The notes: generated from the letters alone by a model not told the origin. Positions 2,881 through 53,227 are shown, numbered from the stretch's first letter. The stretch is DNA of 64,000 nt from an uncultured Actinomycetes bacterium (GCA_963704995.1 CAVPIM010000018.1:238484-302483); one strand, 5' to 3'. A program made the numbers and translations.

Positions 2881-3208
2881 CGGCTACCACGGACTATCCC
2901 GGCTTGCCCTGGCCCGGCTGGCCCCGGCGGCAGAGTCACCGTAGACGTGCAGCGCCGTCCCCGGCCATCAGACCCCCGGCCGCCCGGAGGGGCCGGCGGG
3001 CCGGAATTCCAAAAGTCTATTAAAACGATCGGATACATCCACTAAGGGTCTCTGACTGGAGTATTCCGTGTTCACCGGGCATGCCGCAGGAGTCTGCCTA
3101 TACTCAGGCAAACATCGCGTAAACCACCGTCGAACCTTGGGCGTCCTGTTCCCAGAAGGCCGGTGCGCGCGGGTTGGGCCGCGAGCACCGCAGCGGGGAG
3201 GGGGTCGG

Positions 3209-4699
3209 ATGACTAGTGATGCAGCCCTTCAAAGGGTGAGTGATGACGCTGCCGCGCGGAGAGGACCGGCTCCCTGGGCCGTCAGCCGGGGCGAGGACCG
3301 GGACCGCTTCCGGTGGGCTCGGTCGTATCTCTGGGCCGCCGGTGCGGCTGACGCTAGTTGCGCTCTCGCCGCCGGGCTCATCGCTCTGGAAGCCCGGTTC
3401 GCCGGCTGGCCCAGCCGGCCCCGCGAGTACCTGCTCTTCACGGCGCTGATGCCGGCCATCTGGGTGGCGTCCGTGGCGCTAGCGGGGGGTTACGACGTGC
3501 GCTTCGTCGGCCTTGGCCCCGATGAGTTCCGTAAGGTGCTGAACGTTGGTGCGAGCCTCACCGCCGGGGTCGCCATCATCTCCTTCGTAACCAAGAGCGA
3601 CATAGCTCGCGGGTACATCGTCATTGCCCTGCCTTGCGCGACCGCGCTTGATCTCCTGGCCAGGTACGGCTTGCGTAAGGGTCTGCACAGGCGCAGACGC
3701 GGCGGGGCGTGCATGCGGCGGGTGATCGCCGTTGGCCATGCTGCGCGGGTGGCCGACCTGATCGGCGAGTTGCGCAGAGAAAAGCATCACGGCCTGTCAA
3801 TTGTGGGTGCGTGCCTGACCCAGGGAACCATGCTCACCCAGATAGCCGGTATCCCGGTGATCGGGGGCATGGATTCTGTCTCCGCTGCTATCGCCGAGCT
3901 GGACGCAGATACGGTGGCTGTCGCCGCCGACCGCGACCTGACCAGAACGCGGCTTCGCGAACTCGCCTGGGAACTCGAGGCCACCGAAACCGATCTTTAC
4001 GTGGCGCCGGCCTTGCTGGACGTGGCCGGGCCCCGCACGACTATCCGCCCGGTGGCGGGCCTGCCACTGCTGCATGTGGACCATCCCGAGTTTTCCGGGA
4101 CCCGCTGGGTTATCAAGGGGCTGTTCGACAAGCTGGCCGCGGGTGCTGCATTAATGATTGCCGCTCCGTTCCTGGTGGTGATCGCGTTCGTTATCGCACT
4201 GCGCGACGGCAGGCCCGTGCTGTTCCGGCAATCGCGCGTCGGCAAGGACGGGCGCACGTTCACTCTCTACAAGTTCCGGACCATGGTGGTGGACGCGGAG
4301 CAGCGGAAGGCGCAGCTCGCCGAGCACGACGAGGGGGCCGGTGCGCTGTTCAAAATGCGCAACGATCCCCGGGTTACGCATACCGGCAGGTGGCTTCGCC
4401 GGTACTCGCTGGATGAGCTGCCCCAGCTCTTCAACGTGCTAAAGGGCGACATGTCCCTCGTCGGCCCGCGGCCTCCCTTGCAGGATGAAGTCGAGCGCTA
4501 TACCGACTACGTGCGCCGCCGGCTGGCGGTAAAGCCGGGTCTCACCGGGCTTTGGCAGATCAGTGGGCGCTCGGATCTTTCCTGGGAAGAAGCGGTCCGG
4601 CTGGACCTGCGCTATGTGGAGAACTGGTCTCTCATACTCGATATGCAGATCCTGTGGAAGAGCTGCCCGGCGGTCTTTCACGGCTCCGGCGCCTACTAG
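3209..4699 (+). CDS. polyprenyl-phosphate glycosyl-1-phosphate transferase (WbaP/CpsE-type initiating sugar transferase)
   Basis: The C-terminal bacterial sugar transferase domain reads RPVLFRQSRVGKDGRTFTLYKFRTM...LFKMRNDPRVT..G..LRRYSLDELPQLFNVLKGDMSLVGPRP...KPGLTGLWQISGRS. ATG 3209 follows ggggaggggg. The track start at 3068 (GTG) is a less likely alternative. The length matches the paralog at 21180. Confidence 0.85.
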   Translation: MTSDAALQRVSDDAAARRGPAPWAVSRGEDRDRFRWARSYLWAAGAADASCALAAGLIALEARFAGWPSRPREYLLFTALMPAIWVASVALAGGYDVRFVGLGPDEFRKVLNVGASLTAGVAIISFVTKSDIARGYIVIALPCATALDLLARYGLRKGLHRRRRGGACMRRVIAVGHAARVADLIGELRREKHHGLSIVGACLTQGTMLTQIAGIPVIGGMDSVSAAIAELDADTVAVAADRDLTRTRLRELAWELEATETDLYVAPALLDVAGPRTTIRPVAGLPLLHVDHPEFSGTRWVIKGLFDKLAAGAALMIAAPFLVVIAFVIALRDGRPVLFRQSRVGKDGRTFTLYKFRTMVVDAEQRKAQLAEHDEGAGALFKMRNDPRVTHTGRWLRRYSLDELPQLFNVLKGDMSLVGPRPPLQDEVERYTDYVRRRLAVKPGLTGLWQISGRSDLSWEEAVRLDLRYVENWSLILDMQILWKSCPAVFHGSGAY

Positions 4700-4710
4700 A
4701 AAAGGTTCTC

Positions 4711-5634
4711 ATGCTTCGCGAACCCCCTTCCTCGCTGAACGACGGCGTAAACCGTCCGGGCAGCCGGGCTTTGCTGGCGGGCCTGCCCTTCCATAGCTTC
4801 ACGGAAGAGCAGGTCGTGGAGCATATCGTCACAGCCAGCCGGGACGGCCGCGGCGGCTGGGTGGCCACCCCGAACGTCGACATCTGCCGGCAGACCCAGC
4901 ATGACGAAACGCTGCTGCGCCTGGTGTCCAGCGCCTCGCTGATCGTGCCCGATGGCATGCCGCTGATCTGGGCCGCAAGGCTGGTGCGTGACCCGTTGCC
5001 GGAGCGGGTAACCGGCGCATCGCTCATTTTTTCGCTGACCCAGGCTGCGGCCCGCCAGCAGCGCTCGATCTACCTGCTGGGCGGCGCGCCCGGAGTACCG
5101 GAGCGAGCCGGGGAGGAACTGCGGGGCCGCTACCCCGGCCTCGTGGTAGCCGGAACAGACGCTCCGCCTACCGGATTCGACGCCGACCCCCAGGCCGTCG
5201 CCGCAGTGCACGCCCGCCTGGAGGCGGCGGCGCCCGACATTGTCTACGTGGGGCTCGGATTCCCCAAGCAGGAACGCCTCATCGCGCGCCTGGCCCCGTC
5301 TTTCCCGGCCACCTGGTTCATTAGTTGTGGCGCAGCGATCCCGTTCGCGGCGAATGCGCTGCCACGGGCCCCGCAGTGGATGCAGTCCGCAGGTCTCGAA
5401 TGGACGTTCCGGCTCATCAGTGAGCCGCGCCGGCTGTACCGGCGGTATCTGCTCCAGGATCTGCCATTCGCAGTCAAGCTGCTGGCCGGATCCGCGATGG
5501 TACGGCTCCGGCCAGTCCGGGGGAGTCAGGCACATGGATCAAAGGAACCACAAATACCATCCGCTCCGGACGGAGAGCCTGGCCCCGGAAATGGGCAGGA
5601 GACCTCTCGCGGACGGATCGGCCGGGTCTTATGA
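4711..5634 (+). CDS. WecB/TagA/CpsF family glycosyltransferase (GT26)
   Basis: Motifs ..PDGMPLIWAARL.., LLGGAPGV.ERA, VGLGFPKQERLI, ..CGAAIPF.A...PRAPQWMQ..GLEWTFRL..EPRRL..RYL. ATG 4711 lies 12 nt after the upstream stop. The upstream part of track ORF 4552-5634 overlaps the preceding gene. Confidence 0.8.
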   Translation: MLREPPSSLNDGVNRPGSRALLAGLPFHSFTEEQVVEHIVTASRDGRGGWVATPNVDICRQTQHDETLLRLVSSASLIVPDGMPLIWAARLVRDPLPERVTGASLIFSLTQAAARQQRSIYLLGGAPGVPERAGEELRGRYPGLVVAGTDAPPTGFDADPQAVAAVHARLEAAAPDIVYVGLGFPKQERLIARLAPSFPATWFISCGAAIPFAANALPRAPQWMQSAGLEWTFRLISEPRRLYRRYLLQDLPFAVKLLAGSAMVRLRPVRGSQAHGSKEPQIPSAPDGEPGPGNGQETSRGRIGRVL

Positions 5635-5916
5635 GCTTCTGCTCACGCCCCCTCGTCTGCCAGCCGGGTCCCTCCCGGTATCACCGTCACCGATTGCACA
5701 GGGGCTTTCAGTCACTGACTGAACACGGCGCTCAGCCGCGCAGGTATGGCGCATCAGGCCGAGGGCCCACGGGAGCGATAGCCGCACGGCCGGTCAGGCG
5801 GGAAACCGCTCAAGGCCCAGGAATCGGACAGACGACCTGATGAAGGTAAAAAGAGGACAAGGTTTACCTAATCGCCGGAACGGCCTTCGGTCGAATGTTA
5901 CGCTGATTTCTCACCA

Positions 5917-7596
5917 ATGCAGCCGGAAGCAAGGCAACTCATGACTAACACGCAACCCACGATCGATCTGCATCAGTACTGGGACGTTTTCCGCTCCCGG
6001 AAACTTACAGTTATCATCCCTGTACTCGCAGTTATCGCGCTGGCGGCCGTGTATATTGTGATGCAGACGCCGCAATATACGGCACAGGCCAAGGTGCTCG
6101 TCAATCCATTGCTGAGCCCGGTCGCTGCGGGGACCACGGCCAAGTCGAATGCCCCGGACATGAATACCGAGCAGGCCACGGCAGCTTCCGCCCCTGTCGC
6201 GAATCTGGCCCGGATCTCGCTGAAGGCTTCAAATAGCGGGGATAGGCTGCTGAATCACCTAAGCGTTTCGGCGGCCAGTACCGGCAATGTTCTTCAATTC
6301 CAGTACACCTCAACTGACGCGCAGCAGGCCGCCCAGTATGCGAACGCGTTCGCCCAGGCTTACATCACCTACCGGAACGACAGCGTGCTGAAGCTTCTTA
6401 CCGCAGGCGTAGCGGAAAGAAAGCACACGATCGCGCTGCTGCAACAACAGCTCCAGCATTCTGGGACGGCGCAACGGGCGGTCCTGCTCTCCCAGCTTCG
6501 TGACGACGAGATCCAGCTGGCGACGTTCCAGAGCGATCAGTCACTGGTGGACGGGGGCCAGGTGATAGGGATCGCCGTGCCTCCCTCCGCGCCGTCCTCG
6601 CCCAAGATCGCCACCACCCTGATCATCGCCGCGGTGATCGGACTGCTCCTGGGCGTCATCCTGGCCCTGCTCAGGGAGGCCCAGGACCGCCGGATCAAGA
6701 GCCCGGGCGAGATGGAGAGCGCGCTTTACGCCCCTGTCCTGAGCGTCGTCCCCAAGTTCAAGGGGCGGTCCCCGGACGCGTCCCTGGTGGCGATCAGTGA
6801 GCCTCGCAGTCCCGCGAGCGAGGCCTACCAGATGGCGGCCATCGCCCTGGAAAACATGCTTCCCCACCCCGGCACGCGGATGGTGATGATCGTCTCGCCC
6901 AAGCCCGGTGGCGGGGCGTCAACCGCGACGGCGAACCTGGGCGCGATACTGGCCCAGGCCGGGCGTCAGGTCATCCTGGTCTCAGCCGACCTGCGGAACC
7001 CGACGCTGCACCTCATCCTCGGGCTTTCCAACGGGCGCGGGGTCTCTACGGCTGTGCGTGAGGGGAAGAGCGCCGAGCGACTGCTGAAAGCTACCCGCGT
7101 TCCCAACCTGTTCCTGCTGAACGCCGGCCCGGAGCCGGAAGATCCGGCGGCGCTCCTGTCCAGCCCGGAAACGGCGCAGGTCTTCCAGGATCTGCAGGCC
7201 CTGAAACCGCACTTCATCCTGGTGGACGCACCGGCCGCGCTCTCGGCGCCCGACGCGATGATCCTCTCCCGTTACGTCAACGGGACCGTTGTCACCTGGA
7301 ACTCCGAGGCCTTCCGGGCCCCCGATCTCCTCGCCGCGCGGCAGCGGCTGAGCAGGGCCGGCGCGAACATCCTGGGTGGGATCTACTCGTTCGCTTCGGG
7401 CAAGGCGAGGGAGCGCGCGAGTTCTCCCGGTGCGGAGCCGCCGCCGCCGCCCCGGGCCCCGGGCCCGCGCGAAACGCGCGCGACACCACTCAACGGCGTT
7501 GACGAGGATGCGCTTGACCCGGCCGACGCTGCGCTGCGGGAACGGTCGGCGGCCTGGTCGCCCCGGTACGGCGCGCAGGGAAGGGTGCAATCGTGA
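5917..7596 (+). CDS. polysaccharide co-polymerase (Wzz domain) fused to a degenerate BY-kinase-like P-loop domain
   Basis: The N-terminus has a Wzz-type TM plus periplasmic coiled region (IDLHQYWDVFRSRKLTVIIPVLAV..), then a second TM (IATTLIIAAVIGLLLGVILALL). The C-terminal CpsD/CapB-like domain has Walker A' (ILVSADLRNP) and Walker B (FILVDAPA). Walker A reads SPKPGGGAST, with Ala where the GK[ST] lysine is expected, and there is no C-terminal Tyr cluster. Confidence 0.75.
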   Translation: MQPEARQLMTNTQPTIDLHQYWDVFRSRKLTVIIPVLAVIALAAVYIVMQTPQYTAQAKVLVNPLLSPVAAGTTAKSNAPDMNTEQATAASAPVANLARISLKASNSGDRLLNHLSVSAASTGNVLQFQYTSTDAQQAAQYANAFAQAYITYRNDSVLKLLTAGVAERKHTIALLQQQLQHSGTAQRAVLLSQLRDDEIQLATFQSDQSLVDGGQVIGIAVPPSAPSSPKIATTLIIAAVIGLLLGVILALLREAQDRRIKSPGEMESALYAPVLSVVPKFKGRSPDASLVAISEPRSPASEAYQMAAIALENMLPHPGTRMVMIVSPKPGGGASTATANLGAILAQAGRQVILVSADLRNPTLHLILGLSNGRGVSTAVREGKSAERLLKATRVPNLFLLNAGPEPEDPAALLSSPETAQVFQDLQALKPHFILVDAPAALSAPDAMILSRYVNGTVVTWNSEAFRAPDLLAARQRLSRAGANILGGIYSFASGKARERASSPGAEPPPPPRAPGPRETRATPLNGVDEDALDPADAALRERSAAWSPRYGAQGRVQS

Positions 7597-8702
7597 TCGG
7601 AGGGTTCGGCACCTCCGGCTCGGTTCCTCCGGCCAGTGAGGCCGGCCACGCACCTGGGCCAGCAGGCGGGGCCGGCTCTGCTGGCCCGGCCAACCTAAGC
7701 GCGGCAGCCGCCCCGGCGCGGCCTCAGCCGTCGGGCGGCGCAGCCCCGTCTCAGGCCACGGTGCAGGTCCGGTACATCGGGGGCTTTGGCCGCAGCGGCA
7801 GCACCATGCTCGACCTCATGCTGGGCCAGGCGCCCGGGGTCTTCTCGGCGGGCGAGGTCCGGGAGATCTGGCAGAGCGGCCTGGTGGAAAACCGCCTGTG
7901 CGGATGTGGTCAGCCCTTCCATGACTGCTCCTTCTGGCTGGCCGTGGGGGAAGCGGGGTTCGGCGGGTGGGACCGGCTCCCTCTTCCTGAGATCCTCCGG
8001 CTGCGATACTCGCTGGACCGGCCCTGGTCATTCCCGGCGTTGCCGGTGAGCGGCATGGTGGGTGCCTTGCAGGCCCGGGTCCAGGAATACACGGGCACGC
8101 TGGAGCGCCTGTACCGGGCCATAGCCGAGGTATCCGGGGCGAAGGTGATCGTGGACTCGTCCAACCTGCCATCGCATGCGTTCCTGCTCCGGGCGATGCC
8201 CGCCATCGACCTGCGCCTGATCCACCTCGTCCGGGACGCCCGGGCCGTGGCCTGGTCGTGGCAGAAGAGGGTGGAGAAAGTGCGGTCGGGCGGTCCTTCC
8301 GAATACCTTCCTCAGTACAGCTCGGCTGGCTCGTCGCTCCGGTGGATGTACTACAACGGGCTCACCCAGTCGCTGCGGCGGCTCGGCGTTCCTTATCATC
8401 TCGTGCGGTACGAGGATCTCGTGAGCAACCCGTACCAGGTGACCGCGGACCTGCTCCGCCACGCCGGGCTCACCGGGGACGCCGCCGAACCCAGCTACAT
8501 CGAAGGTCACCGGGTCAAGCTGAAGCCAAATCACACCGTGGAGGGCAACCCGATGCGGTTTGTGACCGGCGACCTTGATCTTCGGGCTGATCAGGCATGG
8601 CAGCGCCAGATGCCGAGGCGGGAGCGGCGTGTGGTAACCGCGCTCACGCTCCCGATGCTAGGGGCGTACGGCTATCCGGTCACGGGGCCAGCCAGCTCAT
8701 GA
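7593..8702 (+). CDS. sulfotransferase family protein
   Basis: PAPS-binding motifs are present: 5'-PSB IGGFGRSGSTMLD and 3'-PB HLVRDARAVAWSW. There is also a conserved CGCG..F..C.FW block. GTG 7593 overlaps the upstream stop (GTGA). GTG 7761 is an alternative start that would remove a low-complexity N-terminus. Confidence 0.75.
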   Translation: MIGGFGTSGSVPPASEAGHAPGPAGGAGSAGPANLSAAAAPARPQPSGGAAPSQATVQVRYIGGFGRSGSTMLDLMLGQAPGVFSAGEVREIWQSGLVENRLCGCGQPFHDCSFWLAVGEAGFGGWDRLPLPEILRLRYSLDRPWSFPALPVSGMVGALQARVQEYTGTLERLYRAIAEVSGAKVIVDSSNLPSHAFLLRAMPAIDLRLIHLVRDARAVAWSWQKRVEKVRSGGPSEYLPQYSSAGSSLRWMYYNGLTQSLRRLGVPYHLVRYEDLVSNPYQVTADLLRHAGLTGDAAEPSYIEGHRVKLKPNHTVEGNPMRFVTGDLDLRADQAWQRQMPRRERRVVTALTLPMLGAYGYPVTGPASS

Positions 8703-9691
8703 GCGCAACCGGGCGTCCGACCATCCTCCTCATCGGTGGTACGGGAAGAAGCGGCAGCACACTACTTGACCGGCTACTGGGTGAGCTCCCCGGTTTCGTG
8801 GCCGTCGGGGAACTCCGCTACATCTGGAGCGAAGCCCTGGGTGAGAACCGCTACTGCGGTTGCGGTGCCCGTTTCCTTGACTGTCCCTTTTGGTCACAAG
8901 TGGGCAGCCAGGCCTTCGGCGGCTGGGATCAGGTCGACGCCAGCCAGGTCATGGCGCAGGAGCGGTCGATCGGCCGGCACCGTCACATCCCGCTGCTGGC
9001 CATGGGCCGGGCCGCCCCGGCCCGGTACACTGGGCGGCTCGATGACTACCTCCGCTCACTAGGCCCCATGTATGACGCGATCCGTGATGTGAGCGGAGCG
9101 GAGGTCATCGTCGATTCGACTAAGGACGCCGCTTATGCGCACGTCCTCCGGCGGATGCCCGGAGCCGATTTCCGGGTCGTGCATCTGGTCCGCGACAGCC
9201 GCGGGGTGGCCTGGTCCTGGGCCAAGGTTGTCCAGTCGGACCCGGAGCACTACATGCGCCGGTTTTCCCCTCCGGTGACTGCGCTGCGCTGGGTGGGCTA
9301 CAACCTGATGGTGGAATCACTCGGAAGGTTTGGTATCCCGCGGCTGTTGCTGCGCTATGAGTCCCTGGTGGAGAATCCCCAGGCCGCCCTCAGCCTGGTC
9401 GCGTCGTTCGCGGGGAAGCCGCTCGATCCCGGGTCCCTCGCCTTCTTGGACGGGAAGAGCGCATCGCTGCGCACCCACCACACAGTGGCCGGTAATCCTA
9501 TGCGGATGAGGGCGGGCCAGATCGGCCTGACCCTCGACGAAGCGTGGCGTACCAACATGCCCTTTGCGCAAAGAGCCCAGGTTACGGCGCTGACCTGGCC
9601 TCTCTTGCGCCACTACGCGCAGTCAGGCCGCAGCCGCACGGAGAACGGTGAGAACCTTCCGGCGGCGTTGGAAGGGGCGGACGGAAGATGA
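8699..9691 (+). CDS. sulfotransferase family protein (paralog of 7593-8702)
   Basis: It carries the same motifs (IGGTGRSGSTLLD; HLVRDSRGVAWSW; CGCG..FLDCPFW). The ATG at 8699 overlaps the upstream TGA (ATGA). The track ORF start at 8597 is upstream, out of the expected context. Confidence 0.8.
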   Translation: MSATGRPTILLIGGTGRSGSTLLDRLLGELPGFVAVGELRYIWSEALGENRYCGCGARFLDCPFWSQVGSQAFGGWDQVDASQVMAQERSIGRHRHIPLLAMGRAAPARYTGRLDDYLRSLGPMYDAIRDVSGAEVIVDSTKDAAYAHVLRRMPGADFRVVHLVRDSRGVAWSWAKVVQSDPEHYMRRFSPPVTALRWVGYNLMVESLGRFGIPRLLLRYESLVENPQAALSLVASFAGKPLDPGSLAFLDGKSASLRTHHTVAGNPMRMRAGQIGLTLDEAWRTNMPFAQRAQVTALTWPLLRHYAQSGRSRTENGENLPAALEGADGR

Positions 9692-10611
9692 CCCAGGTGA
9701 ACTGGCCGTCGATCAGCGCGGTTATCCCCACCCGGGATAGGCCCGAATTGCTGGCCCGGGCCGTGCAGAGCGTTCTGAATCAGTCCTACCCTGGCCCCCT
9801 TGAGTGTGTCGTGGTCTTTGATCAGCAGGAACCGCGCATGCCCGACGTCGCCGTGCCGGAAGGCAGGCCGGTCAGGCTCATCCAGAACGACCGGACTCCC
9901 GGTCTCGCGGGGGCCAGGAACACGGGGGCCGCGGCATGCACCAGCGACCTGCTGGCCTGGTGTGATGATGACGACGAGTGGCTGCCTGACAAGCTGCGCC
10001 GGCAGGTCGAGGCGATGCGGGAGACCCCCGGGGCCGCCGTGGCCACCTGCGGTATCTGCTTGTGTGTGGGAAACCGCCGCTACCTCAAGACTCCTTCCGC
10101 GCAAGCTGTCGTGCCGCGCGCAGCCCTGCTCCGGTCTCGCCAGGCGTGGATCCACTCCACGACGCTGCTGATCCAGCGGGAGAGGTTCTTCGGCGACATC
10201 GGGCCGGTCGATGAAGCGGTGCCCGGCAGCTATGGGGAAGACTACGAATGGGTTCTGCGGGCCTCCAAAGTCGCGGCCATCGTCGCGGTTCCCGAGGCGC
10301 TCGTCCGGGTGTACTGGCAGACCTCGTACTACTCGGATCGGTGGGACGTCATGATCTCCGCGATCCGGTACCACCTGGATAAGCATCCGGAACTCGCCGA
10401 TGATGCACGGAACGCGGCCCGCATGTATGGGCGGCTCGCGTTCGCATACGGCGCATCTGGCCTGCCCGGACAGGCCCGCCGGTGGGCTCACCGTTCCATC
10501 CGGCGCAACTGGCGCCAGCCCCGGGGTTATCTGGCGATGCTGGTCGCCGCGCGTGTGCTGTCGCCACGCCGCGTGATATCCGCAGCCCACGCGATCGGAA
10601 AGGGCCTGTAA
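9688..10611 (+). CDS. family 2 glycosyltransferase
   Basis: GT2 signature ISAVIPTRDRPELLARAVQSVLNQSY...VVVFDQ...ARN.G......WCDDDDEW. ATGA overlap with the upstream gene at 9688-9691. Confidence 0.85.
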   Translation: MTQVNWPSISAVIPTRDRPELLARAVQSVLNQSYPGPLECVVVFDQQEPRMPDVAVPEGRPVRLIQNDRTPGLAGARNTGAAACTSDLLAWCDDDDEWLPDKLRRQVEAMRETPGAAVATCGICLCVGNRRYLKTPSAQAVVPRAALLRSRQAWIHSTTLLIQRERFFGDIGPVDEAVPGSYGEDYEWVLRASKVAAIVAVPEALVRVYWQTSYYSDRWDVMISAIRYHLDKHPELADDARNAARMYGRLAFAYGASGLPGQARRWAHRSIRRNWRQPRGYLAMLVAARVLSPRRVISAAHAIGKGL

Positions 10612-10613
10612 GG

Positions 10614-11987
10614 GTGGCCATTTACAGCGTCGAGTCAACGGCGGCAGTGGCTGCGGAGGCGGCGAAGCCTGCGGAGCTTGCGGCGCCGCCCAGGAAGCGG
10701 CACCTTCCGGCCGGATGGCCACTGCTGGCCATCCTGGTGCTCTCTCCCCTGTGGTACGTCCTCGGCCTGGGGGGCTTCATCTACGTCATCCTGGCCGCCC
10801 CCATGCTGGCCCACCTGATCATGGCGAGAACCTGGCGGGTCCCGCGCGGATTCATCATCTGGCTGTTCTTCCTCGGCTGGATATGCCTTTCCGCGATCAT
10901 GATCTCGAAAGGCTCGAACTGGTTCACCTTTGCCTACCGGCTCGCCTCCTACCTGGCGGCGACCGTGGTCTTCATCTATGTGATCAACGTCAACGAAAAG
11001 GTTCTGCCGACCAGGCGGATCCTCAACGCACTCACCATCTTCTGGGCCGTCATCGTCGTCGGGGGCTTCGCCGCCATGGCCGCTCCCCACCTGTCGTTCT
11101 CCACCCCCACCCAGAAGCTCCTTGGCCATCTCGGATCCAACAAGCTTCTCGTCGCCCTGATCCATCCCACCCTGGCCCAGGCCCAGGCCCTGGGCGGCGT
11201 GGCGGCGATCGGCCATGCCATTCCCCGCCCGGCCGCGCCCTTCGCTTATACCAACTGGTGGGGAGCCAACTTCGCCTTCCTGCTGCCCTTCGTCATCCTG
11301 GCCCTGCGCCAGGCTCACTCGCGCCTGGCGCGGGTGACATTGATGGGCCTGCTGGTGGTCTCCCTGGTACCGTTCATTTACTCGATCAACCGTGGCGCCT
11401 GGATCAGCATCATCGTCGGCGGGCTGTACGCGTGGGTACGGTTCGCGGCCCGGGGCCGCGGCCGGGCCGCGCTCGGCGGGCTGGTAGTGCTCGTCGTCGT
11501 GGCGCTGGCGGTCCTCGTTACGCCGCTGGGTGGTGTAGTCCACGACCGGATCGGGCATCAGGGAAGTGCGTCGCTTCGTCTTACGCTCATCGATCAGTCC
11601 GCGCAGGGTGCCATGCAATCCCCGCTGGTGGGCTACGGGGTTCCGCTCCCCCAGCCCGTCAGCAAGTATTCGCTCCCCAACGTAGGAACCCAAGGACAAC
11701 TGTGGCTCGTCCTCGTGTCGGTTGGTATCCCCGGGCTGATCTTCTTCCTGCTCTGGCTGCTGTACGTGTTCTGGAAGTCACGATCGCCGGACGATCCGGT
11801 CTCGTTCGCCGTCCATATTGCGGTCCTGGCCGGCTTCATTCAGCTACCGTTCTACGGCTGGATGCCTGCGGAGATGTTCCTGGTGATGGCCGTAGCGGGA
11901 TTGGTCTGGCGCAATCGCGACCGCCCGGTAACCGCCGACCGCCCGCTGGAGGCAGCGCATCCAGGGCTGGCCACCTGGCCAGGTTGA
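10614..11987 (+). CDS. O-antigen ligase/polymerase-like (Wzy-type) integral membrane protein
   Basis: Polytopic membrane protein with about 10 or more hydrophobic segments. It has a Wzy_C-like block INRGAWISIIVGGLYAWV and a large loop. GTG 10614 lies 3 nt after the GT2 stop, and the track start at 10482 overlaps the GT2 gene. Confidence 0.7.
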   Translation: MAIYSVESTAAVAAEAAKPAELAAPPRKRHLPAGWPLLAILVLSPLWYVLGLGGFIYVILAAPMLAHLIMARTWRVPRGFIIWLFFLGWICLSAIMISKGSNWFTFAYRLASYLAATVVFIYVINVNEKVLPTRRILNALTIFWAVIVVGGFAAMAAPHLSFSTPTQKLLGHLGSNKLLVALIHPTLAQAQALGGVAAIGHAIPRPAAPFAYTNWWGANFAFLLPFVILALRQAHSRLARVTLMGLLVVSLVPFIYSINRGAWISIIVGGLYAWVRFAARGRGRAALGGLVVLVVVALAVLVTPLGGVVHDRIGHQGSASLRLTLIDQSAQGAMQSPLVGYGVPLPQPVSKYSLPNVGTQGQLWLVLVSVGIPGLIFFLLWLLYVFWKSRSPDDPVSFAVHIAVLAGFIQLPFYGWMPAEMFLVMAVAGLVWRNRDRPVTADRPLEAAHPGLATWPG

Positions 11988-12120
11988 CCTGGTGACCCGC
12001 CAGGTACCCGGCACGTCACAGTCGCGGCTTCCCGCGGCTGATGACGAGCGACAGCCCTCCCCACCCGGTCCCGAGGGGGAGCCGGAGCCGCCGCGGCGCC
12101 CTGGCCCCGACGCAATCTGG

Positions 12121-13172
12121 CGGCCCCGCCAGCCTGACCCGGCGGAGTACGACCAGCCCCGCCAGCCCGACCCGGTCGGGAATGGCCAGCCCGGCCAGCC
12201 CGACCCTGCGGGCTACGACCGGCCCCGCCAGCCCCGTCGGCCTGACCCGGCGGCCTACGGCCAGCCCCGCCAGCCTGACCCGGCGGGCAACGGCGACCCG
12301 CGCCAGCGCCGCCGGCCTGACCCCGCGGGCTACGATCAGCCCCGCCAGCCCCGTCGGCCTGACCCCGGCGGCCTACGACCAGCCCCGCCAGCCTGACCCG
12401 GCGGGCAATGGCGACCCGCGCCAGCGCCGCCGGCCTGATCCCGCGGGCTACGATCAGCCTCGCCGGCCTGACCCGGCGGGCAACGGCGAGCACCGCCGGC
12501 CTGACCCGGCGGGCTACGATGCGCCAGCCCCGCCAGCCCCGCCAGCCTGACCCGGCGGGCTACGGTCAGCTCCGCCAGCCTGACCCCGCCGGCTACGACC
12601 AGCCTCGCCAGCCTGACCCGGCGGGCAACGGCGACCCGCGCCAGCACCGCCGGCCTGACCCCGCGGGCTACGACCAGCCTCGCCAGCCTGACCCGGCGGG
12701 CAACGGCGACCCGCGCCAGCCCGCCGGCCTGACCCCGCGGGCTACGACCAGCCCCGCCAGCCTGACCCGGCGGGCTACGGCGAGCGCCGCCGGCCTGACC
12801 CCGCGGGCTACGACCAGCCCCGCCAGCCTGACCCGGCGGGCAACGGCGACCGCGCCAGCACCGGCGGCCTGACCCCGCGGGCTACGATCAGCCTCGCCGG
12901 CCTGACCCGGCGGGCAACGGCGAGCGCCGCCGGCCTGACCCCGCGGGCTACGGCGAGCCGCCGGCCTGACCCGGCGGGCTACGGTCAGCCTCGCCAGCCC
13001 CGCCGGCCTGACCCCGCGGGCTACGGCCAGCCTCGCCGGCCTGACCCGGCGGGCAACGGCGAGCGCCGCCGCCCTGACCCGGCGGGCTACGGCCAGCCCG
13101 GCCAGCCTGATCCCGCGGGCTATGGCCAGCCCCGCCAGCCTGACCCGGCCGGCTACGACCAGCCCCGCCGAC
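12121..13172 (+). repeat. 29-copy tandem coding-type repeat (33/42-nt units, reads PRQPDPAGY(D/G)Q / PDPAGNGDPRQRRR) with five phase switches
   Basis: The anchor CCTGA(C/T)CC(C/G)GCGGGC recurs at 12133, 12166, 12199, 12241 ... 13139. Of 28 spacings, 23 are 33 or 42 nt and five are 34, 46, 41, 41 and 31 nt. The last block is in frame with the wzx ATG at 13310. Confidence 0.85.
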
Positions 13173-13309
13173 CCGGCCCGGACAGGGACGGGCGGCCGCG
13201 CCGGTCCGGCCCCGCCCGGCAGCCGCCGCCTCGTGCTCCGGGACGCTGGGTACCGCGCCCCGATCCGGATGAAAACCTCACGAGCATCGCGGCGATCGTT
13301 GCCAGGAAC

Positions 13310-14929
13310 ATGGACACCGCGGAGCTGGAACCCGTGCGTGTCCCGCTGCTGCGGCAATCCGAAACTCCGGCCGGGCCAGCGGATGCCAACGCGCGTCATC
13401 GCCGGGGGGCCGGACACTTTCAGGCGCTGGCCCGTGGCGGGGCGCTCAACCTTCTCGGGGTGGTAGTCAGCGGGTCCATGCAGCTGGTGCTGACCGTCGT
13501 GGTGGCCCGCGGCGTTGGAGCGTCAGGCACCGGGGCGTTCTTCGAAGCAGTCGCGCTGTTCACCATCCTGTCCAACGTTGGTGAACTCGGTGCCGACACC
13601 GGCCTCGTCAAGATCCTTCCTCGCTACCGGGCACTCAACCGCAACCAGGATCTGGGAACAGTCGTTCAGATCGCCCTGTGGCCGGTCATCCTCTTCGGCA
13701 TCGGCATGGGGGCGGCGACATGGCTGCTCGCTCCGGAGCTCACGTCGCTCCTGTCTCATGCCCAGCACGGCGCCCAGGTCGAGTCTTACCTGCGGACTTT
13801 TGCGCCGTTCATACCGCTCGGGGCCATTACCACCGTCGTGCTGGCCGGGACCCGGGGCATGGGAACCATGGCGCCTTTCGTCATGGTCCAGAACGTGTTC
13901 CTACCCGCGATCCGGCCGGTTCTGATCGCCGCGGCCCTGTACCTCGGGCTCGGCACGCTGGCGGTAGCCCTCGGCTGGGCGGCCCCGGTGGGCGCCGCTT
14001 TCCTGCTCGGTATGTTGTTCCTGCTCAGGCTGGTCATCCGGGCCCGCAAGGCTGACCCGGGCCTCAGCCCCGGCAATACGCGGGACATCACCCGGGAATT
14101 CTGGAGCTTTGCTGGGCCGCGCGCGCTCGCCGCCGTCTTCGGCATCACGATCACCTGGCTCGACGTCCTGCTGGTTGGCGCCTTTATGCATTCCACCCAG
14201 CAGGCAGGCATCTACGCGGCGGCGAGCCGGCTCTCGGTGCTCGGTGCCAGCATGCTCAGCGCGGTGGGGATGGCTATCGCACCGCAGGTGAGCGAGCTGG
14301 CCACGCTGGGAAAGATGCGTGAGGCTGAGAAGCTGTTCCAGGTCGGGACATGGTGGCTGATGGCGCTCACCTGGCCGGTGTACATCACACTCGCGATCTT
14401 CGCACCGTTCCTGCTCGAGGTGTACGGTCACCGATTCGCAGCCGGGACCGCGGCGCTGATGATCCTCTGCCTGGCCCAGCTGTTCAACCTGGGAACCGGG
14501 AACGTGACCATCGTGCTCTTGATGGTGGGTAAGAGCTCATGGAACATGTACAACGCCGCCGGATCGCTGGCCGTTAATATCGGCCTCAACATCGTTCTCA
14601 TCCCCCGGCTCGGCATCACCGGGGCAGCGATCGCCTGGGCTGCTTCCATCGTCTGCAACAACCTGGCCGCGCTACTGCAAGTCAACTACCTGCTCAGGAT
14701 CCGTCCCTTCGGGCGAGGGTACTGGGTGGTAGTCGCAGCATCCGTGTTCTTCTTCGGCGTGGGCGGGGTGATAGTTCGCCAGATCGTCGGGCTCAACCTG
14801 GCTGGATTTGCCCTCTTCATGCTCCTCTCGCTGCCCGTTTACGCGCTGGTGCTGTGGCGGCTGCGGGGGATGCTAGGACTTTCTTCCTTGCGCCAGAGCG
14901 CCGTCAAGCGCAAGCGATTGTCTCAGTAG
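13310..14929 (+). CDS. Wzx-type oligosaccharide flippase (MOP-superfamily polysaccharide biosynthesis protein)
   Basis: 539 aa with about 12-14 TM segments. The N-terminal pattern (..LARGGALNLLG.VVS...QLVLTVVVARGVGASGTGAFF..) is typical of Polysacc_synt/Wzx proteins. This is a conservative start: the same frame is open upstream to 12692 through the repeat. Confidence 0.8.
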   Translation: MDTAELEPVRVPLLRQSETPAGPADANARHRRGAGHFQALARGGALNLLGVVVSGSMQLVLTVVVARGVGASGTGAFFEAVALFTILSNVGELGADTGLVKILPRYRALNRNQDLGTVVQIALWPVILFGIGMGAATWLLAPELTSLLSHAQHGAQVESYLRTFAPFIPLGAITTVVLAGTRGMGTMAPFVMVQNVFLPAIRPVLIAAALYLGLGTLAVALGWAAPVGAAFLLGMLFLLRLVIRARKADPGLSPGNTRDITREFWSFAGPRALAAVFGITITWLDVLLVGAFMHSTQQAGIYAAASRLSVLGASMLSAVGMAIAPQVSELATLGKMREAEKLFQVGTWWLMALTWPVYITLAIFAPFLLEVYGHRFAAGTAALMILCLAQLFNLGTGNVTIVLLMVGKSSWNMYNAAGSLAVNIGLNIVLIPRLGITGAAIAWAASIVCNNLAALLQVNYLLRIRPFGRGYWVVVAASVFFFGVGGVIVRQIVGLNLAGFALFMLLSLPVYALVLWRLRGMLGLSSLRQSAVKRKRLSQ

Positions 14930-26036: not shown

Positions 26037-26798
26037 ATGATGACCACCGACGACAGCCGCCTGGCTCGTGACCTGGCGGCCGCCGCGGGCCAGCGCCTAC
26101 TCGGCCTGCGGGCCGAGGGGGGCGATCCGGCGGAGCTACGCTCGGCGGGGGACCGGAGTTCACACGAGTTCCTCACCGCGGAACTGGGCCGGCTTCGCCC
26201 GGCCGACGCGGTGCTGTCTGAGGAAGGCAAGGACGACCACGCGCGGCTGGCCGCCGACCGGGTATGGATCATCGACCCGCTGGATGGCACCAGGGAATTC
26301 GGCGAGGCTGGCCGGGACGACTGGGCGGTGCACGTCGCGCTGTGGGAGCGGGGTGAACTGGCCGCGGGCGCCGTCGCGCTGCCCGCCCAGGACGCCGTGC
26401 TGAGCACGGCGCAGCCGCAGCCCAGGCCGCCTGCCCCGCCGGCGGGGCCGCTGCGCGTGCTGGTCAGCCGGACCAGGCCCCCCGCGCTGCTGGCCCGGCT
26501 GGCTGAGCAGGTCGAGCTCACGCTGATCCCGATGGGCTCGGCCGGGGCGAAGGCGGCCGAGGTGATCCGCGGGACCGCCGATGCCTACGTGCACAGCGGC
26601 GGCCAGTACGAGTGGGATTCGGCGGCCCCGGTCGCGGTGGCCCAGGCGGCGGGGCTGCACGCGTCGCGGCTGGACGGGTCAAAGCTGGCCTACAACCAGG
26701 CGGATCCTTCCCTGCCCGATATCCTTATCTGCTCAGCGGGGCTTGCCCCCGTGCTGCTGGATGGTCTGCGCGTGGCTGGTTGTTCAGCTACGCAGTAA
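26037..26798 (+). CDS. cysQ: 3'(2'),5'-bisphosphate nucleotidase (PAP phosphatase)
   Basis: Inositol-monophosphatase-fold motifs are present: DRSSHEFL, LSEE, WIIDPLDGTREF, WAVHVAL and WDSAAPVAV. It lies directly upstream of cysDN. Confidence 0.8.
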   Translation: MMTTDDSRLARDLAAAAGQRLLGLRAEGGDPAELRSAGDRSSHEFLTAELGRLRPADAVLSEEGKDDHARLAADRVWIIDPLDGTREFGEAGRDDWAVHVALWERGELAAGAVALPAQDAVLSTAQPQPRPPAPPAGPLRVLVSRTRPPALLARLAEQVELTLIPMGSAGAKAAEVIRGTADAYVHSGGQYEWDSAAPVAVAQAAGLHASRLDGSKLAYNQADPSLPDILICSAGLAPVLLDGLRVAGCSATQ

Positions 26799-26856
26799 CG
26801 CTCTCCCCGGGGAGAGTGACCTATCCCGTCCATGCCCGACGACCGGAGTCTGCTTG

Positions 26857-27777
26857 ATGGCCGTGCCACGTTCTGACTATTCGCTCTCGCAACTAGAAGT
26901 GCTCGAGGCGGAGTCCATCCACATCATGCGTGAGGTAGCCGCCGAATTCGAGCGGCCGGTCCTGCTGTTCTCGGGCGGTAAGGATTCCATCGTCATGCTG
27001 GCCCTCGCCGAGCGGGCGTTCTGGCCGGCCAGGGTCCCGTTCCCGGTCATGCACGTGGACACGGGGCACAATTTCCCCGAGGTGATCGATTACCGGGACC
27101 GCCGGGTCGCCGACGCCGGGGTACAGCTGGTCGTGGCGTCCGTCCAGGACTCCATCGACGCCGGCCGGGTGGCTGAGGAGACCGGCCGCCGGGCCAGCCG
27201 GAACCGGCTGCAGACGACCACGCTGCTGGATGCCATCGAGGAAAACCGCTTCGACGCGGTGTTCGGCGGCGGCCGCCGGGACGAGGAAAAGGCCCGGGCC
27301 AAGGAGCGGGTGTTCTCGTTCCGGGACGAGTTCGGCCAGTGGGATCCGAAGAACCAGCGTCCGGAGCTGTGGAGCATCTACAACACGCGGATCCGGATGG
27401 GCGAGCATATCCGGGTGTTTCCCCTGTCCAACTGGACCGAGCTGGATGTCTGGCAGTACATCGCCCGGGAGAAGCTGGAGATCCCGTCCATCTACTACGC
27501 CCACCAGCGGCGGGTGTTCGAGCGGGACGGCATCCTGCTCGCCGAGAACGAATTCACCCCCCGGGGCGACGACGAGCCGGTCTTCGAGACCACCGTGCGC
27601 TACCGCACGGTGGGCGACATGACCTGCACCGGCGCGGTGGAATCGACCGCGACGACCGTGGCCGACGTGATCGCCGAGGTGGCGGCCACCCGGGTCACCG
27701 AGCGCGGCCAGACACGCGCGGACGACAGGGCCAGCGAGGCAGCTATGGAAGACCGCAAGCGGGAGGGTTACTTTTAA
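26857..27777 (+). CDS. cysD: sulfate adenylyltransferase subunit 2
   Basis: PAPS-reductase-fold PP-loop FSGGKDS, then HVDTGHNFPE, RRDEEKARAKERVFSFRD..GQWDPKNQRPELW, PLSNWTELDVWQYI and the C-terminal MEDRKREGYF. ATG 26857; the track ORF starts further upstream at 26581. Confidence 0.95.
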   Translation: MAVPRSDYSLSQLEVLEAESIHIMREVAAEFERPVLLFSGGKDSIVMLALAERAFWPARVPFPVMHVDTGHNFPEVIDYRDRRVADAGVQLVVASVQDSIDAGRVAEETGRRASRNRLQTTTLLDAIEENRFDAVFGGGRRDEEKARAKERVFSFRDEFGQWDPKNQRPELWSIYNTRIRMGEHIRVFPLSNWTELDVWQYIAREKLEIPSIYYAHQRRVFERDGILLAENEFTPRGDDEPVFETTVRYRTVGDMTCTGAVESTATTVADVIAEVAATRVTERGQTRADDRASEAAMEDRKREGYF

Positions 27778-29087
27778 TGACGGCCACGGCGCACGACGTC
27801 CTGTCCCCGGAAGGGAGCAGGCCGATGGACATCCTGCGGCTGGCCACGGCGGGCTCGGTCAACGACGGCAAGAGCACCCTGATCGGGCGCCTGCTGTTCG
27901 ACTCGAAAGCCATCTTCGAGGACCAGCTCGCGGCGGTCGAGCAGACCAGCAAGGCCCGCGGCGAGGAGTACACGAACCTGGCCCTGCTCACCGACGGCCT
28001 GCGCGCGGAGCGGGAGCAGGGCATCACGATCGACGTGGCCTACCGCTATTTCGCCACGCCGCGCCGGAAGTTCATCATTGCCGACACCCCGGGGCACATC
28101 CAGTACACCCGCAACATGGTGACCGGCGCCTCCACCGCCGACCTGGCCATCGTGCTGGTGGACGCGCGCAACGGGCTGACCGAGCAGAGCCGGCGGCACG
28201 CGTTCCTCACCACCCTGCTCCGGGTGCCCCACCTGGTGCTCGCGGTGAACAAGATGGACCTGGTCGATTACGACCAGCGTGTCTTCGAGCGGATCAGCGA
28301 GGAGTTCGCGGCGTTCGCGGCCAAGCTGGAGATCGGCGACCTGAGCTTCATCCCCATCTCCGCCCTGCACGGGGACAACGTGGTGACCCGGTCGGAGAAG
28401 ATGCCGTGGCACGACGGGCCCTCGCTGCTGCACCACCTGGAGCACGTGCACATCGCCTCGGACCGCAACCTGATCGATGTGCGCTTCCCGGTCCAGTACG
28501 TGATCCGGCCGCACCAGGCCACCGACCCCGCGCTGCACGACTACCGCGGGTACGCCGGCCAGGTCGCGGGCGGGGTGCTCAAGCCCGGTGACGAGGTGAT
28601 GCACCTGCCATCCGGGCTGACCACGAAGATCTCGCGGATCGACACCGCGCGCGGCCCGGTCCCGGAGGCCTACTCGCCGATGTCGGTGACCCTGGTGCTC
28701 GAGGACGATCTGGACATCTCCCGCGGCGACATGATCTGCCGCCCGCACAACCAGCCGATGGTCTCCCAGGACGTGGAGGGCATGGTCTGCTGGATGTCGG
28801 AGAGCAAGCAGCTGGGGGCGCGGGACCGGCTGGTGGTCAAGCACACCTCCCGCACCGTGAAGGCCATCGTCCGTGACCTGCAGTACCGGCTCGACGTGAA
28901 CACCCTGCACCGGGACGAGAACGCGGAGCGGCTCGGGCTGAACGAGGTGGGCCGGGTGAGCCTGCGGCTGACCCAGCCGCTGTTCTTCGACCCGTACACC
29001 CGCAACCGGCAGACCGGGGGGCTTATCCTCATCGACGAGTCCACCAACGCCACAGTCGGGTCGGTCATGATCACTGAAGGGCACTGA
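27777..29087 (+). CDS. cysN: sulfate adenylyltransferase subunit 1 (GTPase), no fused APS-kinase domain
   Basis: G1 GSVNDGKSTL, G3 DTPGH and G4 NKMD. The TAATG overlap with cysD is at 27775-27779. The protein ends after the EF-Tu-like beta-barrel domains (about 436 aa), so no CysC module is attached. Confidence 0.95.
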   Translation: MTATAHDVLSPEGSRPMDILRLATAGSVNDGKSTLIGRLLFDSKAIFEDQLAAVEQTSKARGEEYTNLALLTDGLRAEREQGITIDVAYRYFATPRRKFIIADTPGHIQYTRNMVTGASTADLAIVLVDARNGLTEQSRRHAFLTTLLRVPHLVLAVNKMDLVDYDQRVFERISEEFAAFAAKLEIGDLSFIPISALHGDNVVTRSEKMPWHDGPSLLHHLEHVHIASDRNLIDVRFPVQYVIRPHQATDPALHDYRGYAGQVAGGVLKPGDEVMHLPSGLTTKISRIDTARGPVPEAYSPMSVTLVLEDDLDISRGDMICRPHNQPMVSQDVEGMVCWMSESKQLGARDRLVVKHTSRTVKAIVRDLQYRLDVNTLHRDENAERLGLNEVGRVSLRLTQPLFFDPYTRNRQTGGLILIDESTNATVGSVMITEGH

Positions 29088-34777: not shown

Positions 34778-35498
34778 GAACACCCCGCCTAACGGCGATA
34801 CCGGGCCGGACGAGGCGGCGCTGGCGGGCCAGCAGCGGCTGAATGAGCGGGTGGTCCGGACCGGAATGTTCGGCACCCAGACGACCGGCGACACATCGGG
34901 CTACGGCGGCCTGCAGGTCCGGCGGGCACCGCAGCCGTCCACACTGCGACCGTACGGCTCGTACTTTGACGAGATCGCCGACGCGCTGAGCGCCCGGCTG
35001 GAGGCCGACGGCTCCGGCTTCGGCGAGGCTGTCGAGCGGGTCGTCGTCGACCGCGGCGAACTCACCCTGCATGTCCGCCGGGAGCACCTGCTCGCGGTGG
35101 CCCAGGTGCTGCGCGACGAGCCGGCGCTCGCCTTCGAGCTGTGCGGCGGCGTGTCCGGCGTGCACTATCTGGCCGACGTGGGCCGGGAACTGCATGCCGT
35201 GTACCACCTGGTCTCCATCACCCACAACCGCCGTCTGCGGCTGGAGGTGAGCGCGCCCGATGCTGACCCGCACGTGCCCTCCGTGGTGAGCGTCTACCCG
35301 ACCTGTGACTGGCACGAGCGCGAGACCTGGGACTTCTTCGGCATCATCTTCGACGGCCATCCCTCGCTGACCAGGATCGAGATGCCGGACGACTGGAAGG
35401 GCCACCCCCAGCGGAAGGACTACCCGCTGGGCGGGATCCCGGTCGAGTACCGCGGCGCCACCGTGCCGCCACCAGACGAGCGGAGGTCGTACACGTGA
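34770..35498 (+). CDS. nuoC: NADH-quinone oxidoreductase subunit C
   Basis: Motifs [18 protein letters not shown] and DYPLGG. Its 8-nt overlap with nuoB and GTGA overlap with nuoD fit operon coupling. Confidence 0.9.
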
Positions 35499-52348: not shown

Positions 52349-52350
52349 GC

Positions 52351-53227
52351 TCACGACTGTGCCCTCCGGGTGATCAGGCCCTGCGGGCGCAGCACGAGCA
52401 CGGCGAGGAAGACGATGAACCCGGCGAGGAGCTCGTCGGAGATGTTGATCTGGGCGCCGATCTGCTGGGCCACGCCCAGCACCACGCCGCCGAGCAGGGT
52501 GCCCCACAGGGAGCCGAGCCCGCCGATCACCACCGCCGCGAACGCGAACAGCAGGATCGTGTCGGTGCCCGTGGTCGGCGAGAGCTGGGAGTACATGCCG
52601 TAGGCGATGCCGCCCAGGGCCACGGTGCCGAAGGCCAGCGCCGCCGCGATGCCGAACACGTGCCGGTAGTCCGCCCCGGCCAGCTGCGCCGCCTCCCGGT
52701 CGTCGGCGACCGCGCGGATCAGGCGGCCGTACCTGGACGCGGACAGGAAGTACTGCAGCCCGAGCAGCACGACCACGGCGACCGCGAAGACGACCACGAG
52801 CAGGTAGCCGATCTGGATCTGCGAGCCGATCGTGAAGGAGCCGCTCACCAGGGGCAGCCCGGTGCCGATCGCGCGGCTGTTGGCGCGTGAAGAACTGGAG
52901 CAGGCCGTTCTCGATCACCACCGACAGGCCGAAGGTGACCATCAGCGTGGTGAGCACGCTGCGGTCGAGCGCGCCCTGGATGACCGTGCGCTGCAGCACG
53001 TAGCCGAGCAGCGCCATCACCGGGACCACGATGAGGAAGGACCAGAGCACCGGGATGTGGGTGACGGTGATGACGCCGATCGCGATGTAGCCCGCGACCA
53101 CCGCGAGGTCGCCGTGCGCGAGGTTCACGACCTTCATCACCCCGAACATCAGCGACAGCCCGCAGGCGAACAGCGCATACAGCCCGCCGGTCAGCACCCC
53201 TTGGATGATGGCGTTGACCCAGGCCAT
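52351..53227 (-). pseudogene. HAAT-family ABC transporter permease (LivH-like), frameshifted near 52880
   Basis: The N-part, MAWVNAIIQGVLTGGLYALFACGLSLMFGVMKVVNLAHGD...VIENGLLQFF, is the first 115 aa of track ORF 51152-53227. The C-part, ANSRAIGTGLPLVSGSFTIG...LRPQGLITRRAQS, is track ORF 52351-52848. Length is 877, which is 1 mod 3. Confidence 0.8.

Follow-up and report, generated by a model that had tools for sequence, protein, structure and literature searches.

Between wzy and wzx in an exopolysaccharide (EPS) gene cluster of an uncultured Actinomycetes bacterium lies a proline-rich tandem array of 29 units, which ends in frame with the Wzx flippase and whose reading frame changes phase five times along the way. 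Here, we asked whether this array is part of the flippase gene and whether the phase switches belong to the genome or to its assembly. The DNA analyzed, referred to as the window, is one strand of a 64,000-nucleotide (nt) stretch (GCA_963704995.1, CAVPIM010000018.1:238484-302483) with a GC content of 69.7%. On the whole of the evidence, we think it highly probable that the array is the expanded middle of a disordered N-terminal tail of Wzx and that the switches are consensus errors.

The array was delimited with an anchor scan, in which the window was searched with CCTGAYCCSGCGGGC at up to 2 mismatches and the background was taken from 100 shuffles. The scan returned 36 matches, against 4.5 ± 2.2 expected (0 of 100 shuffles reached 36), and 28 of these lie in 12133-13139. 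The 29th unit, at 12166 (CCCGACCCGGTCGGG), is more diverged and has 3 mismatches to the anchor. Tandem Repeats Finder independently reported a 33-nt period with 29.2 copies over 12123-13169. The 29 head-to-tail units have 28 spacings, 23 of which are 33 or 42 nt; the five off-phase spacings are 34 (12358), 46 (12500), 41 (12687), 41 (12827), and 31 nt (12934). The resulting phase blocks hold 7, 4, 5, 4, 3, and 6 units, the last in phase with an ATG at 13310, and the frame from 12692 to 14929 translates without a stop. In copy number, spacings, blocks, and open frame, and in the placement of a GTG at 11992, 5 nt after the wzy stop (TGA, 11985-11987), these results reproduce what a first-pass annotation of the window had claimed.

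Units of 33, 42, or 45 nt encode PDPAGY(D/G)(Q/E)PR(Q/R) and PDPAGNG(D/E)(PRQ)RRR. Within the PDPAG core of the 33-nt units, 16 of 19 variant calls are synonymous and fall at the third codon position, a pattern shared by all phase blocks. When all six frames were scanned for PDP[AVG][GAE][YN], none was found outside the wzx tail in the window or in loci L001 to L026, so the motif is specific to the tail. Plotting GC by codon position gave no information over the array, as the repeat is GC saturated at two positions, and a megablast search of 11900-13400 against plasmids gave no match.

The first-pass annotation had interpreted the array as a disordered, Pro/Arg/Asp-rich N-terminal extension of the flippase of roughly 440 amino acids (aa), and this is borne out by homologous tails in single open reading frames (ORFs) of relatives. 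Five relatives (L001 to L005) are loci in metagenome-assembled genomes (MAGs) of uncultured Actinomycetes from the Microflora Danica project, with Wzx proteins 71 to 85% identical to that of the window. In all five, the wzx frame extends upstream without interruption as far as the end of wzy, the protein starts with the peptide VDLV(N/D/E)R(R/L)V, and 150 to 290 Pro/Arg/Gly-rich residues precede the first membrane helix. Metagenome loci L011, L013/L023, L014, L017 to L019, and L021 have the same open-tail arrangement. Altogether, 12 of the 13 relatives with complete upstream DNA carry one uninterrupted ORF, which runs from the GTG after wzy through the tail to the wzx stop. The tail is missing in L022 (65% identity) and no tail is recognizable in L024 (49% identity), and among the search matches, homologs at or below 52% identity are mostly 500 to 560 aa long and lack it. 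Both ends of the tail are marked by conserved sequence. At its start, the junction TGA-CCTG-GTG and the peptide VDLV(T/S/N)R(Q/R)V recur in relatives at 71 to 99% identity, and the window has this junction and VDLVTRQV at 11983-12006. At its end, WVPRPDPDENLTSIAAIVARN, just upstream of the ATG at 13310, is conserved at the protein level in relatives at 84 to 99% identity. L011 and L013 have GTG at the codon matching 13310; in L001 and L005 that codon is CTA or CTG, so the latter two orthologs cannot start there. Relatives do not show a start matching 13310 preceded by unrelated DNA, and the intact ones contain no separate repeat ORF that ends before that position. By these comparisons, ATG 13310 is not the ancestral start.

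One relative carries the array itself in an unbroken frame. L027 is a 12,350-nt contig from the Joint Genome Institute (JGI) with wzy, array, and wzx, and its Wzx core is 98.7% identical to that of the window. From the GTG at 3047 to the wzx stop, it has a single 857-aa ORF with no phase change and at least 18 PDPAG units, and its leader (VTRQVPGTSQSRLPAADDERQPSPPGPEGEPEPPRRPGPDAIWRPRQPDPAEYDQ...) matches that of the window in every amino acid. ORF continuity in relatives, conservation of WVPRPDPDENLTSIAAIVARN, and synonymous variation in the PDPAG core together show that the array is coding in the PDPAGY frame as an N-terminal tail of Wzx. In this actinobacterial clade, the flippase gene thus includes the tail as a translated region that has been conserved.

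Public annotation does not reflect this. The gene calls that we examined (L007, L009, L027 to L036, and P0001 to P0021) start at an internal ATG or GTG, which gives proteins of 483 to 561 aa and leaves up to ~1 kb of tail unannotated; the annotation of L009 instead places a spurious minus-strand ORF of 362 aa across the array (4834-5922). As a result, the tail is systematically missing from protein databases. A 95%-identical flippase, HEX9357834.1 (P0136; WNGB01002986.1, the contig of L011), is recorded as 'MAG TPA: flippase [Streptosporangiaceae bacterium]', and this name is the sole family-level taxonomic hint for the lineage.

Repair of the five switch sites yields a 440-aa tail, which together with the 539-aa core gives a product of about 979 aa. 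The repaired tail has a net charge of +14 and is 24.5% P, 17.7% R, 12% G, 12% D, 10% Q, 8.6% A, and 4.5% Y (20 Tyr). We modeled the part that is in frame as it stands (12692-14929) with AlphaFold2, using 41 homologs. The 224 tail residues in the model have a predicted local distance difference test score (pLDDT) below 50 and no secondary structure except an 11-residue helix over NLTSIAAIVARN; in the membrane core, pLDDT is mostly above 90. Pfam detected no domain, Pkinase included, in the tail. A phmmer search with the repaired 440-aa tail against 5.8 billion proteins returned nothing at E ≤ 1e-3, a result from which rarity cannot be inferred because composition filters probably suppress all matches. 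Given its low complexity, the absence of a predicted fold, and the lack of a domain match, the tail is predicted to be an intrinsically disordered tandem-repeat region.

The identities that the first-pass annotation had assigned to the flanking genes hold, with Pfam Wzy_C found in 10482-11987 and Polysacc_synt and MatE in 13310-14929. The flippase core scores 39.8 bits for Polysacc_synt (PF01943; cutoff, 28.2) and 38 bits for MatE (cutoff, 24.9), and NCBIfam gives only a weak SpoVB match, below its cutoff. A sequence search of the PDB with the core found no match. Searched against the PDB with Foldseek, the core model matched MurJ (7wax; E = 3.6e-9, TM-score 0.73) and WzxE (9g9n; TM-score 0.77), with scores normalized to the target. 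The core is therefore modeled as a multidrug/oligosaccharidyl-lipid/polysaccharide (MOP) fold of the MurJ/WzxE type, the two-bundle arrangement of transmembrane helices also known from MATE. The tails of all relatives are net positive (+8 to +26), and the termini of Wzx proteins are cytoplasmic (PMC11706664), from which we infer that the tail is cytoplasmic.

Across the clade, the sequence of the tail is poorly conserved; what recurs is its composition, its charge, and a short Trp motif, present 2 to 8 times per tail. In one subclade (L002 to L004 and L017 to L021), the motif reads (P/A)LWRDP(S/A)PRP; in the other (L001, L005, L011, L014, and the window at 12115-12138 and 13244-13270), it takes the form D(A/M)DWRPRRPDP or RWVPRPDPD. 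This W-R-x-P motif is the only sequence feature of the tail that is conserved clade-wide, and it is a candidate interaction motif. The PDPAGY units are a lineage-specific expansion. In L011, at 95% identity, the PDPAGNG units number only about five and Tyr is absent, and the other tabulated tails of relatives have 0 to 2 Tyr, compared with 20 in the repaired tail of the window. Unit number and order vary by strain, from 29 in the window to more than 31 in L009, at least 18 (about 20) in L027, and about 5 in L011, which is consistent with turnover by whole-unit slippage or recombination.

Next, we consider the switches. All five are 1- or 2-nt indels, and three fall at unit-variable positions or in C-runs (Table 1). 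Switch 1 falls where unit variants differ (C or G), and the base lost at switch 3 is a position that varies between units (G or A). At switch 2, where the unit contains a 9-nt CGCCAGCCC sub-repeat in 2.9 copies, removal of the extra G leaves a 45-nt unit encoding PDPAGYDRQPRQPRQ. The C lost at switch 4 belongs to a CCC run, and the dinucleotide lost at switch 5 to the sequence CGCCGC. The two paralogous 41-nt units lack bases at different sites, indicating independent deletion events. A 140-nt higher-order period reported by Tandem Repeats Finder could have marked one frameshifted unit that was later duplicated, that is, a real mutation. We rejected this because the deletions in the 41-nt units differ; the true higher-order period is 141 nt, or 47 codons.

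The first-pass annotation had attributed the disrupted frame to either mis-assembly or genuine slippage. Of these, our results favor an assembly or consensus error. Short-read assemblies usually break off inside arrays of this kind, and this is the case for 12 JGI contigs of near-identical strains. In these contigs and L027, 107 of 107 units keep the wzx frame and every spacing is divisible by 3; the 13 contigs share array segments and are not independent samples. Only L009, a Flye-style ENA contig that is 96% identical to the window at the nucleotide level, likewise has a long array with a broken frame. Among its more than 31 units, about six spacings are off phase, and these are at positions different from those in the window.

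Housekeeping genes elsewhere in the window are broken as well. nuoD (35495-36869) is split into two frames at ~36258 (GCCGGGCTGC), nuoH (41319-42807) has a frameshift at ~41915 (GCCGGGATGG) and an in-frame TAG at 42388-42390, and nuoL (44959-46687) is split at ~45455 (ATCGGGCCTG). Two genes on the minus strand within 51152-54166 are likewise split. For a branched-chain-type ABC permease, ORF 52351-52848 contains positions 127 to 266 of the BPD_transp_2 profile, and the remainder lies in a different frame; for an ABC ATPase, ABC_tran positions 1 to 80 lie in ORF 53396-54166 and 103 to 134 in ORF 52845-53630. In total, housekeeping genes in the window carry at least 5 frameshifts and one premature stop while keeping a coding-type GC content at third codon positions (GC3) of 0.85 to 0.99, which argues for an indel-prone consensus. 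Each of the three located nuo frameshifts is one extra base in a CGGG context, and this shared context suggests that basecalling or polishing erred systematically, possibly in connection with methylation. Near 44.9 kb, the GC3 frame track gives a hint of one more switch. The assemblies behind related MAGs used Nanopore reads only, with Flye and one round of Medaka (PMC12313526), and consensus indel errors are documented for such pipelines (PMC9262707; PMC12313526). The five phase switches are thus very likely to be artifacts of an indel-prone long-read metagenome consensus.

Several points weigh against this account. First, the ratio of synonymous to nonsynonymous changes in the unique flanks of the tail is about 1:1, indicating weak constraint (in the leader at 11992-12132, which is ~91% identical to that of L011 at the nucleotide level, 7 codon changes are synonymous and 5 are nonsynonymous). 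The case for coding accordingly rests on ORF continuity and on the third-position bias in the PDPAG core, not on flank ratios. Second, in the 13 kb around the array, comparison with L007, L009, and L010 reveals no indel that shifts a coding frame. At 5 per kb, errors in the array are far denser than in the immediate flanks, and the rest of the window has ~1 per 10 kb, so repeat-specific mis-polishing or strain mixing must be invoked. Third, the array errors are deduced rather than seen in reads. Fourth, L027 and the other JGI contigs represent sister strains (94 to 96% nucleotide identity), which leaves a small probability to a tail that was pseudogenized in this strain alone. Finally, short-read assemblers can collapse arrays, and the unit number of L027 is possibly an underestimate.

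If the frameshifts were genuine, the array would be a decaying relic, and this strain would make a tail-less Wzx from ATG 13310, which has AGGAA just upstream. As the sequence stands, the wzx frame contains no ATG, GTG, or TTG from 12692 up to 13310; that ATG is preceded by CCAGGAAC and is the start that public gene callers pick. The tail is also fast evolving and missing in L022, so it may be dispensable, and the coding sequence beside the array shows no frameshifting indels when compared with relatives. A relic of this kind is nonetheless unlikely in our judgment. The ORF of L027 is intact, and every JGI unit is in frame. The lesions are not confined to this gene, with nuoD, nuoH, nuoL, the permease, and the ABC ATPase also broken; the shifts in L009 lie elsewhere, and the paralogous 41-nt units carry different deletions. 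Moreover, a third-position bias that is equal in every phase block argues against relaxed constraint on the PDPAG core.

It had also been suggested that a slippage-prone repeat could act as an on/off switch for EPS export. As a phase-variable contingency locus, the array would toggle the flippase tail, and with it export, by slippage. Copy number and unit order do differ by strain, so the array is recombinationally active. However, the units are 33, 42, or 45 nt long, all multiples of 3 in the window and the JGI contigs, and slippage by such units cannot shift the frame. The frame changes are instead scattered 1- or 2-nt indels in GC-only sequence and not changes in a homopolymer or short-unit tract. 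No out-of-frame allele occurs in the 13 JGI contigs; such alleles are limited to L009 and the window, which differ in where the shifts lie, and the housekeeping lesions point the same way. We therefore give this idea almost no credence. It is also very improbable that the array lies outside wzx as a noncoding intergenic minisatellite or a separate, possibly minus-strand gene: although public annotation leaves ~1 kb blank or calls the 362-aa ORF of L009, and although phmmer finds nothing with the repaired tail, 12 of 13 relatives with quite different tails have a single ORF from the conserved GTG to the wzx stop, variation is biased to synonymous sites in the PDPAG frame, the peptides WRPRRPDP and WVPRPDPDENLTSIAAIVARN are conserved across relatives, and the minus-strand ORFs are interrupted at the same sites, their openness elsewhere reflecting nothing more than a unit without stop codons in that frame.

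Reading the array as the expanded middle of the Wzx tail, translation would begin at the GTG at 11992, with coupling to termination of wzy, and would then proceed through a 47-aa leader, about 29 PDPAG(Y/N) repeats, and the linker with WVPRPDPDENLTSIAAIVARN into the flippase core, for a product of about 979 aa, and the repeat number would drift by whole-unit slippage. We speculate that the tail serves as a flexible, Arg-rich, multivalent cytoplasmic tether. Such a tether may bind anionic partners, for instance membrane lipids or the probably sulfated repeat unit linked to undecaprenyl pyrophosphate, which it could concentrate, or it may bind other proteins of the EPS machinery through the W-R-x-P motif. 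In WzxE, a cytoplasmic Arg cluster beside the lumen entrance is proposed to recruit the substrate pyrophosphate (PMC11706664). A fuller functional proposal is that the ~20 evenly spaced Tyr residues of the PDPAGY units are phosphorylated by the kinase encoded four genes upstream, or that Arg clusters and W-R-x-P motifs capture the anionic repeat unit or dock Wzy/Wzz, with repeat number tuning EPS export. We regard this as a long shot; if true, this would be the first Wzx flippase regulated via a disordered repeat tail. Phosphorylation of tail Tyr residues by the kinase-like protein of the cluster (5917-7596) is possible, but the idea of a bacterial tyrosine kinase substrate is weakened because Tyr is not conserved in the tails of relatives.

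The genes around the array supply the context of a Wzx/Wzy-dependent pathway, namely an initiating transferase, glycosyltransferases, Wzy, and a Wzz-type protein (Table 1).

Table 1. Positions of the flippase gene, its array and phase switches, and neighboring EPS genes in the window
Feature	Position	Strand	Evidence
wzy (O-antigen ligase/polymerase family); longest ORF, true start may be further downstream	10482..11987	+	Pfam Wzy_C 37.7 bits (cutoff 31.7); synteny with wzy called in L009 and L027
GTG start codon of full-length flippase, junction TGA-CCTG-GTG	11992..11994	+	Conserved junction and start peptide in relatives
Nonrepeat leader of tail (MTRQVPGTSQSRLPAADDERQPSPPGPEGEPEPPRRPGPDAIWRPRQ), holds first W-R-P-R motif	11992..12132	+	Amino acids identical to L027
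29-unit tandem array	12133..13171	+	Anchor scan, Tandem Repeats Finder; PDPAG-core variation
Switch 1: CCCCGG in place of CCCGG (one base gained), 34-nt unit at 12358	12363..12367	+	Comparison with intact unit 12241 CCTGACCCGGCGGCCTAC
Switch 2: one extra G after GAT, 46-nt unit at 12500	12521 (exact position inferred)	+	Unit comparison, sub-repeat
Switch 3: base missing in CAGC[G/A]CCGCCGG, 41-nt unit at 12687	12720..12721	+	Comparison with intact 42-nt units 12274, 12392, and 12612
Switch 4: one C lost from GACCCGCG run, 41-nt unit at 12827	12851..12852	+	Unit comparison
Switch 5: two bases lost (GAGC--CGCCGG), 31-nt unit at 12934	12958..12959	+	L007 alignment, 2-nt gap here
Post-array linker, including conserved WVPRPDPDENLTSIAAIVARN at 13247-13309	13172..13309	+	Amino acid conservation in relatives at 84 to 99% identity
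Wzx (MOP-superfamily) flippase core, extent of public annotation	13310..14929	+	Pfam, AlphaFold, Foldseek
EPS sugar transferase, polyprenyl glycosylphosphotransferase	3068-4699		TIGR03025
WecG/TagA glycosyltransferase	4552-5634		
Wzz plus P-loop tyrosine-kinase-like protein	5917-7596		
Sulfotransferase	7593-8702		Pfam Sulfotransfer_3
GT2 glycosyltransferase	9688-10611		

A second, putative sulfotransferase downstream of the first, extending to ~9691, is placed by synteny with L009. Approximately 13 kb downstream are a CysQ-like gene of the inositol-monophosphatase family (26037-26798), a gene with a PAPS_reduct domain resembling cysD (26581-27777), and a GTPase gene resembling cysN (27339-29087). 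The sulfotransferases and these genes at 26 to 29 kb, which would supply 3'-phosphoadenosine-5'-phosphosulfate, point to a probably sulfated exopolysaccharide and hence an anionic substrate. An apparent GC3 frame switch at 4.0 to 5.1 kb looks like an ordinary gene boundary, as ORFs 3068-4699 and 4552-5634 give complete Pfam domains. Another type of flippase extension occurs in seven distant Wzx homologs (P0058, P0061, P0062, P0064, P0073, P0077, and P0112; 46 to 49% identity, 824 to 853 aa), which are fused to a sulfotransferase domain (PF13469/PF00685).

Two implications follow from this locus. Throughout a clade of uncultured actinomycetes from soil, which one public record assigns to Streptosporangiaceae, Wzx has a fast-evolving, disordered tail; this is modest but real biology. 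In addition, when metagenomes are assembled from long reads, coding tandem repeats of GC-only sequence can gain clustered 1- or 2-nt consensus indels that mimic pseudogenes or phase variation. Broken housekeeping genes on the same contig and short-read contigs of sister strains sufficed to tell artifact from biology here, with a confidence that is strong if short of complete. The switches resemble known Nanopore-only consensus errors in being 1- or 2-nt indels in G/C runs or low-complexity sequence, in accompanying split housekeeping genes, and in shifting at assembly-specific positions; they differ in their density within the array (5 per kb, versus roughly 1 per 10 kb elsewhere).

The protein itself shares with the Wzx flippases for O-units and EPS (WzxE of E. 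coli, PDB code 9G9N, and Wzx of P. aeruginosa) its Pfam signatures, predicted fold, and Wzx/Wzy cluster context. However, described Wzx proteins are bare bundles of 12 transmembrane helices of ~410 to 500 aa, whereas this clade adds a disordered tandem-repeat N-terminal tail of 150 to 440 aa. To our knowledge, a tail of this kind is undescribed for Wzx proteins. The closest functional analogy is the mycobacterial lipid II flippase MviN/MurJ (Rv3910), whose phosphorylated pseudokinase domain is reported to bind FhaA (Gee et al. 2012, summarized in PMC11898655). Both are actinobacterial MOP flippases with a large extra cytoplasmic region, which in MviN is a regulatory docking site. The extension of MviN is C-terminal and a folded pseudokinase, whereas the tail described here is N-terminal, has a pLDDT below 50, and consists of short Pro-rich repeats; this flippase is not a member of the MviN type. 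Low-complexity, Pro/Gly/Arg-rich cytoplasmic tails occur on membrane proteins of high-GC actinobacteria. The Wzx tail resembles these in composition, in whole-unit turnover, in its lack of predicted structure, and in the conservation of composition and charge over sequence. It differs from them in being tied clade-wide to one orthologous flippase, with a conserved start, a conserved segment before the first transmembrane helix, and the W-R-x-P motif.

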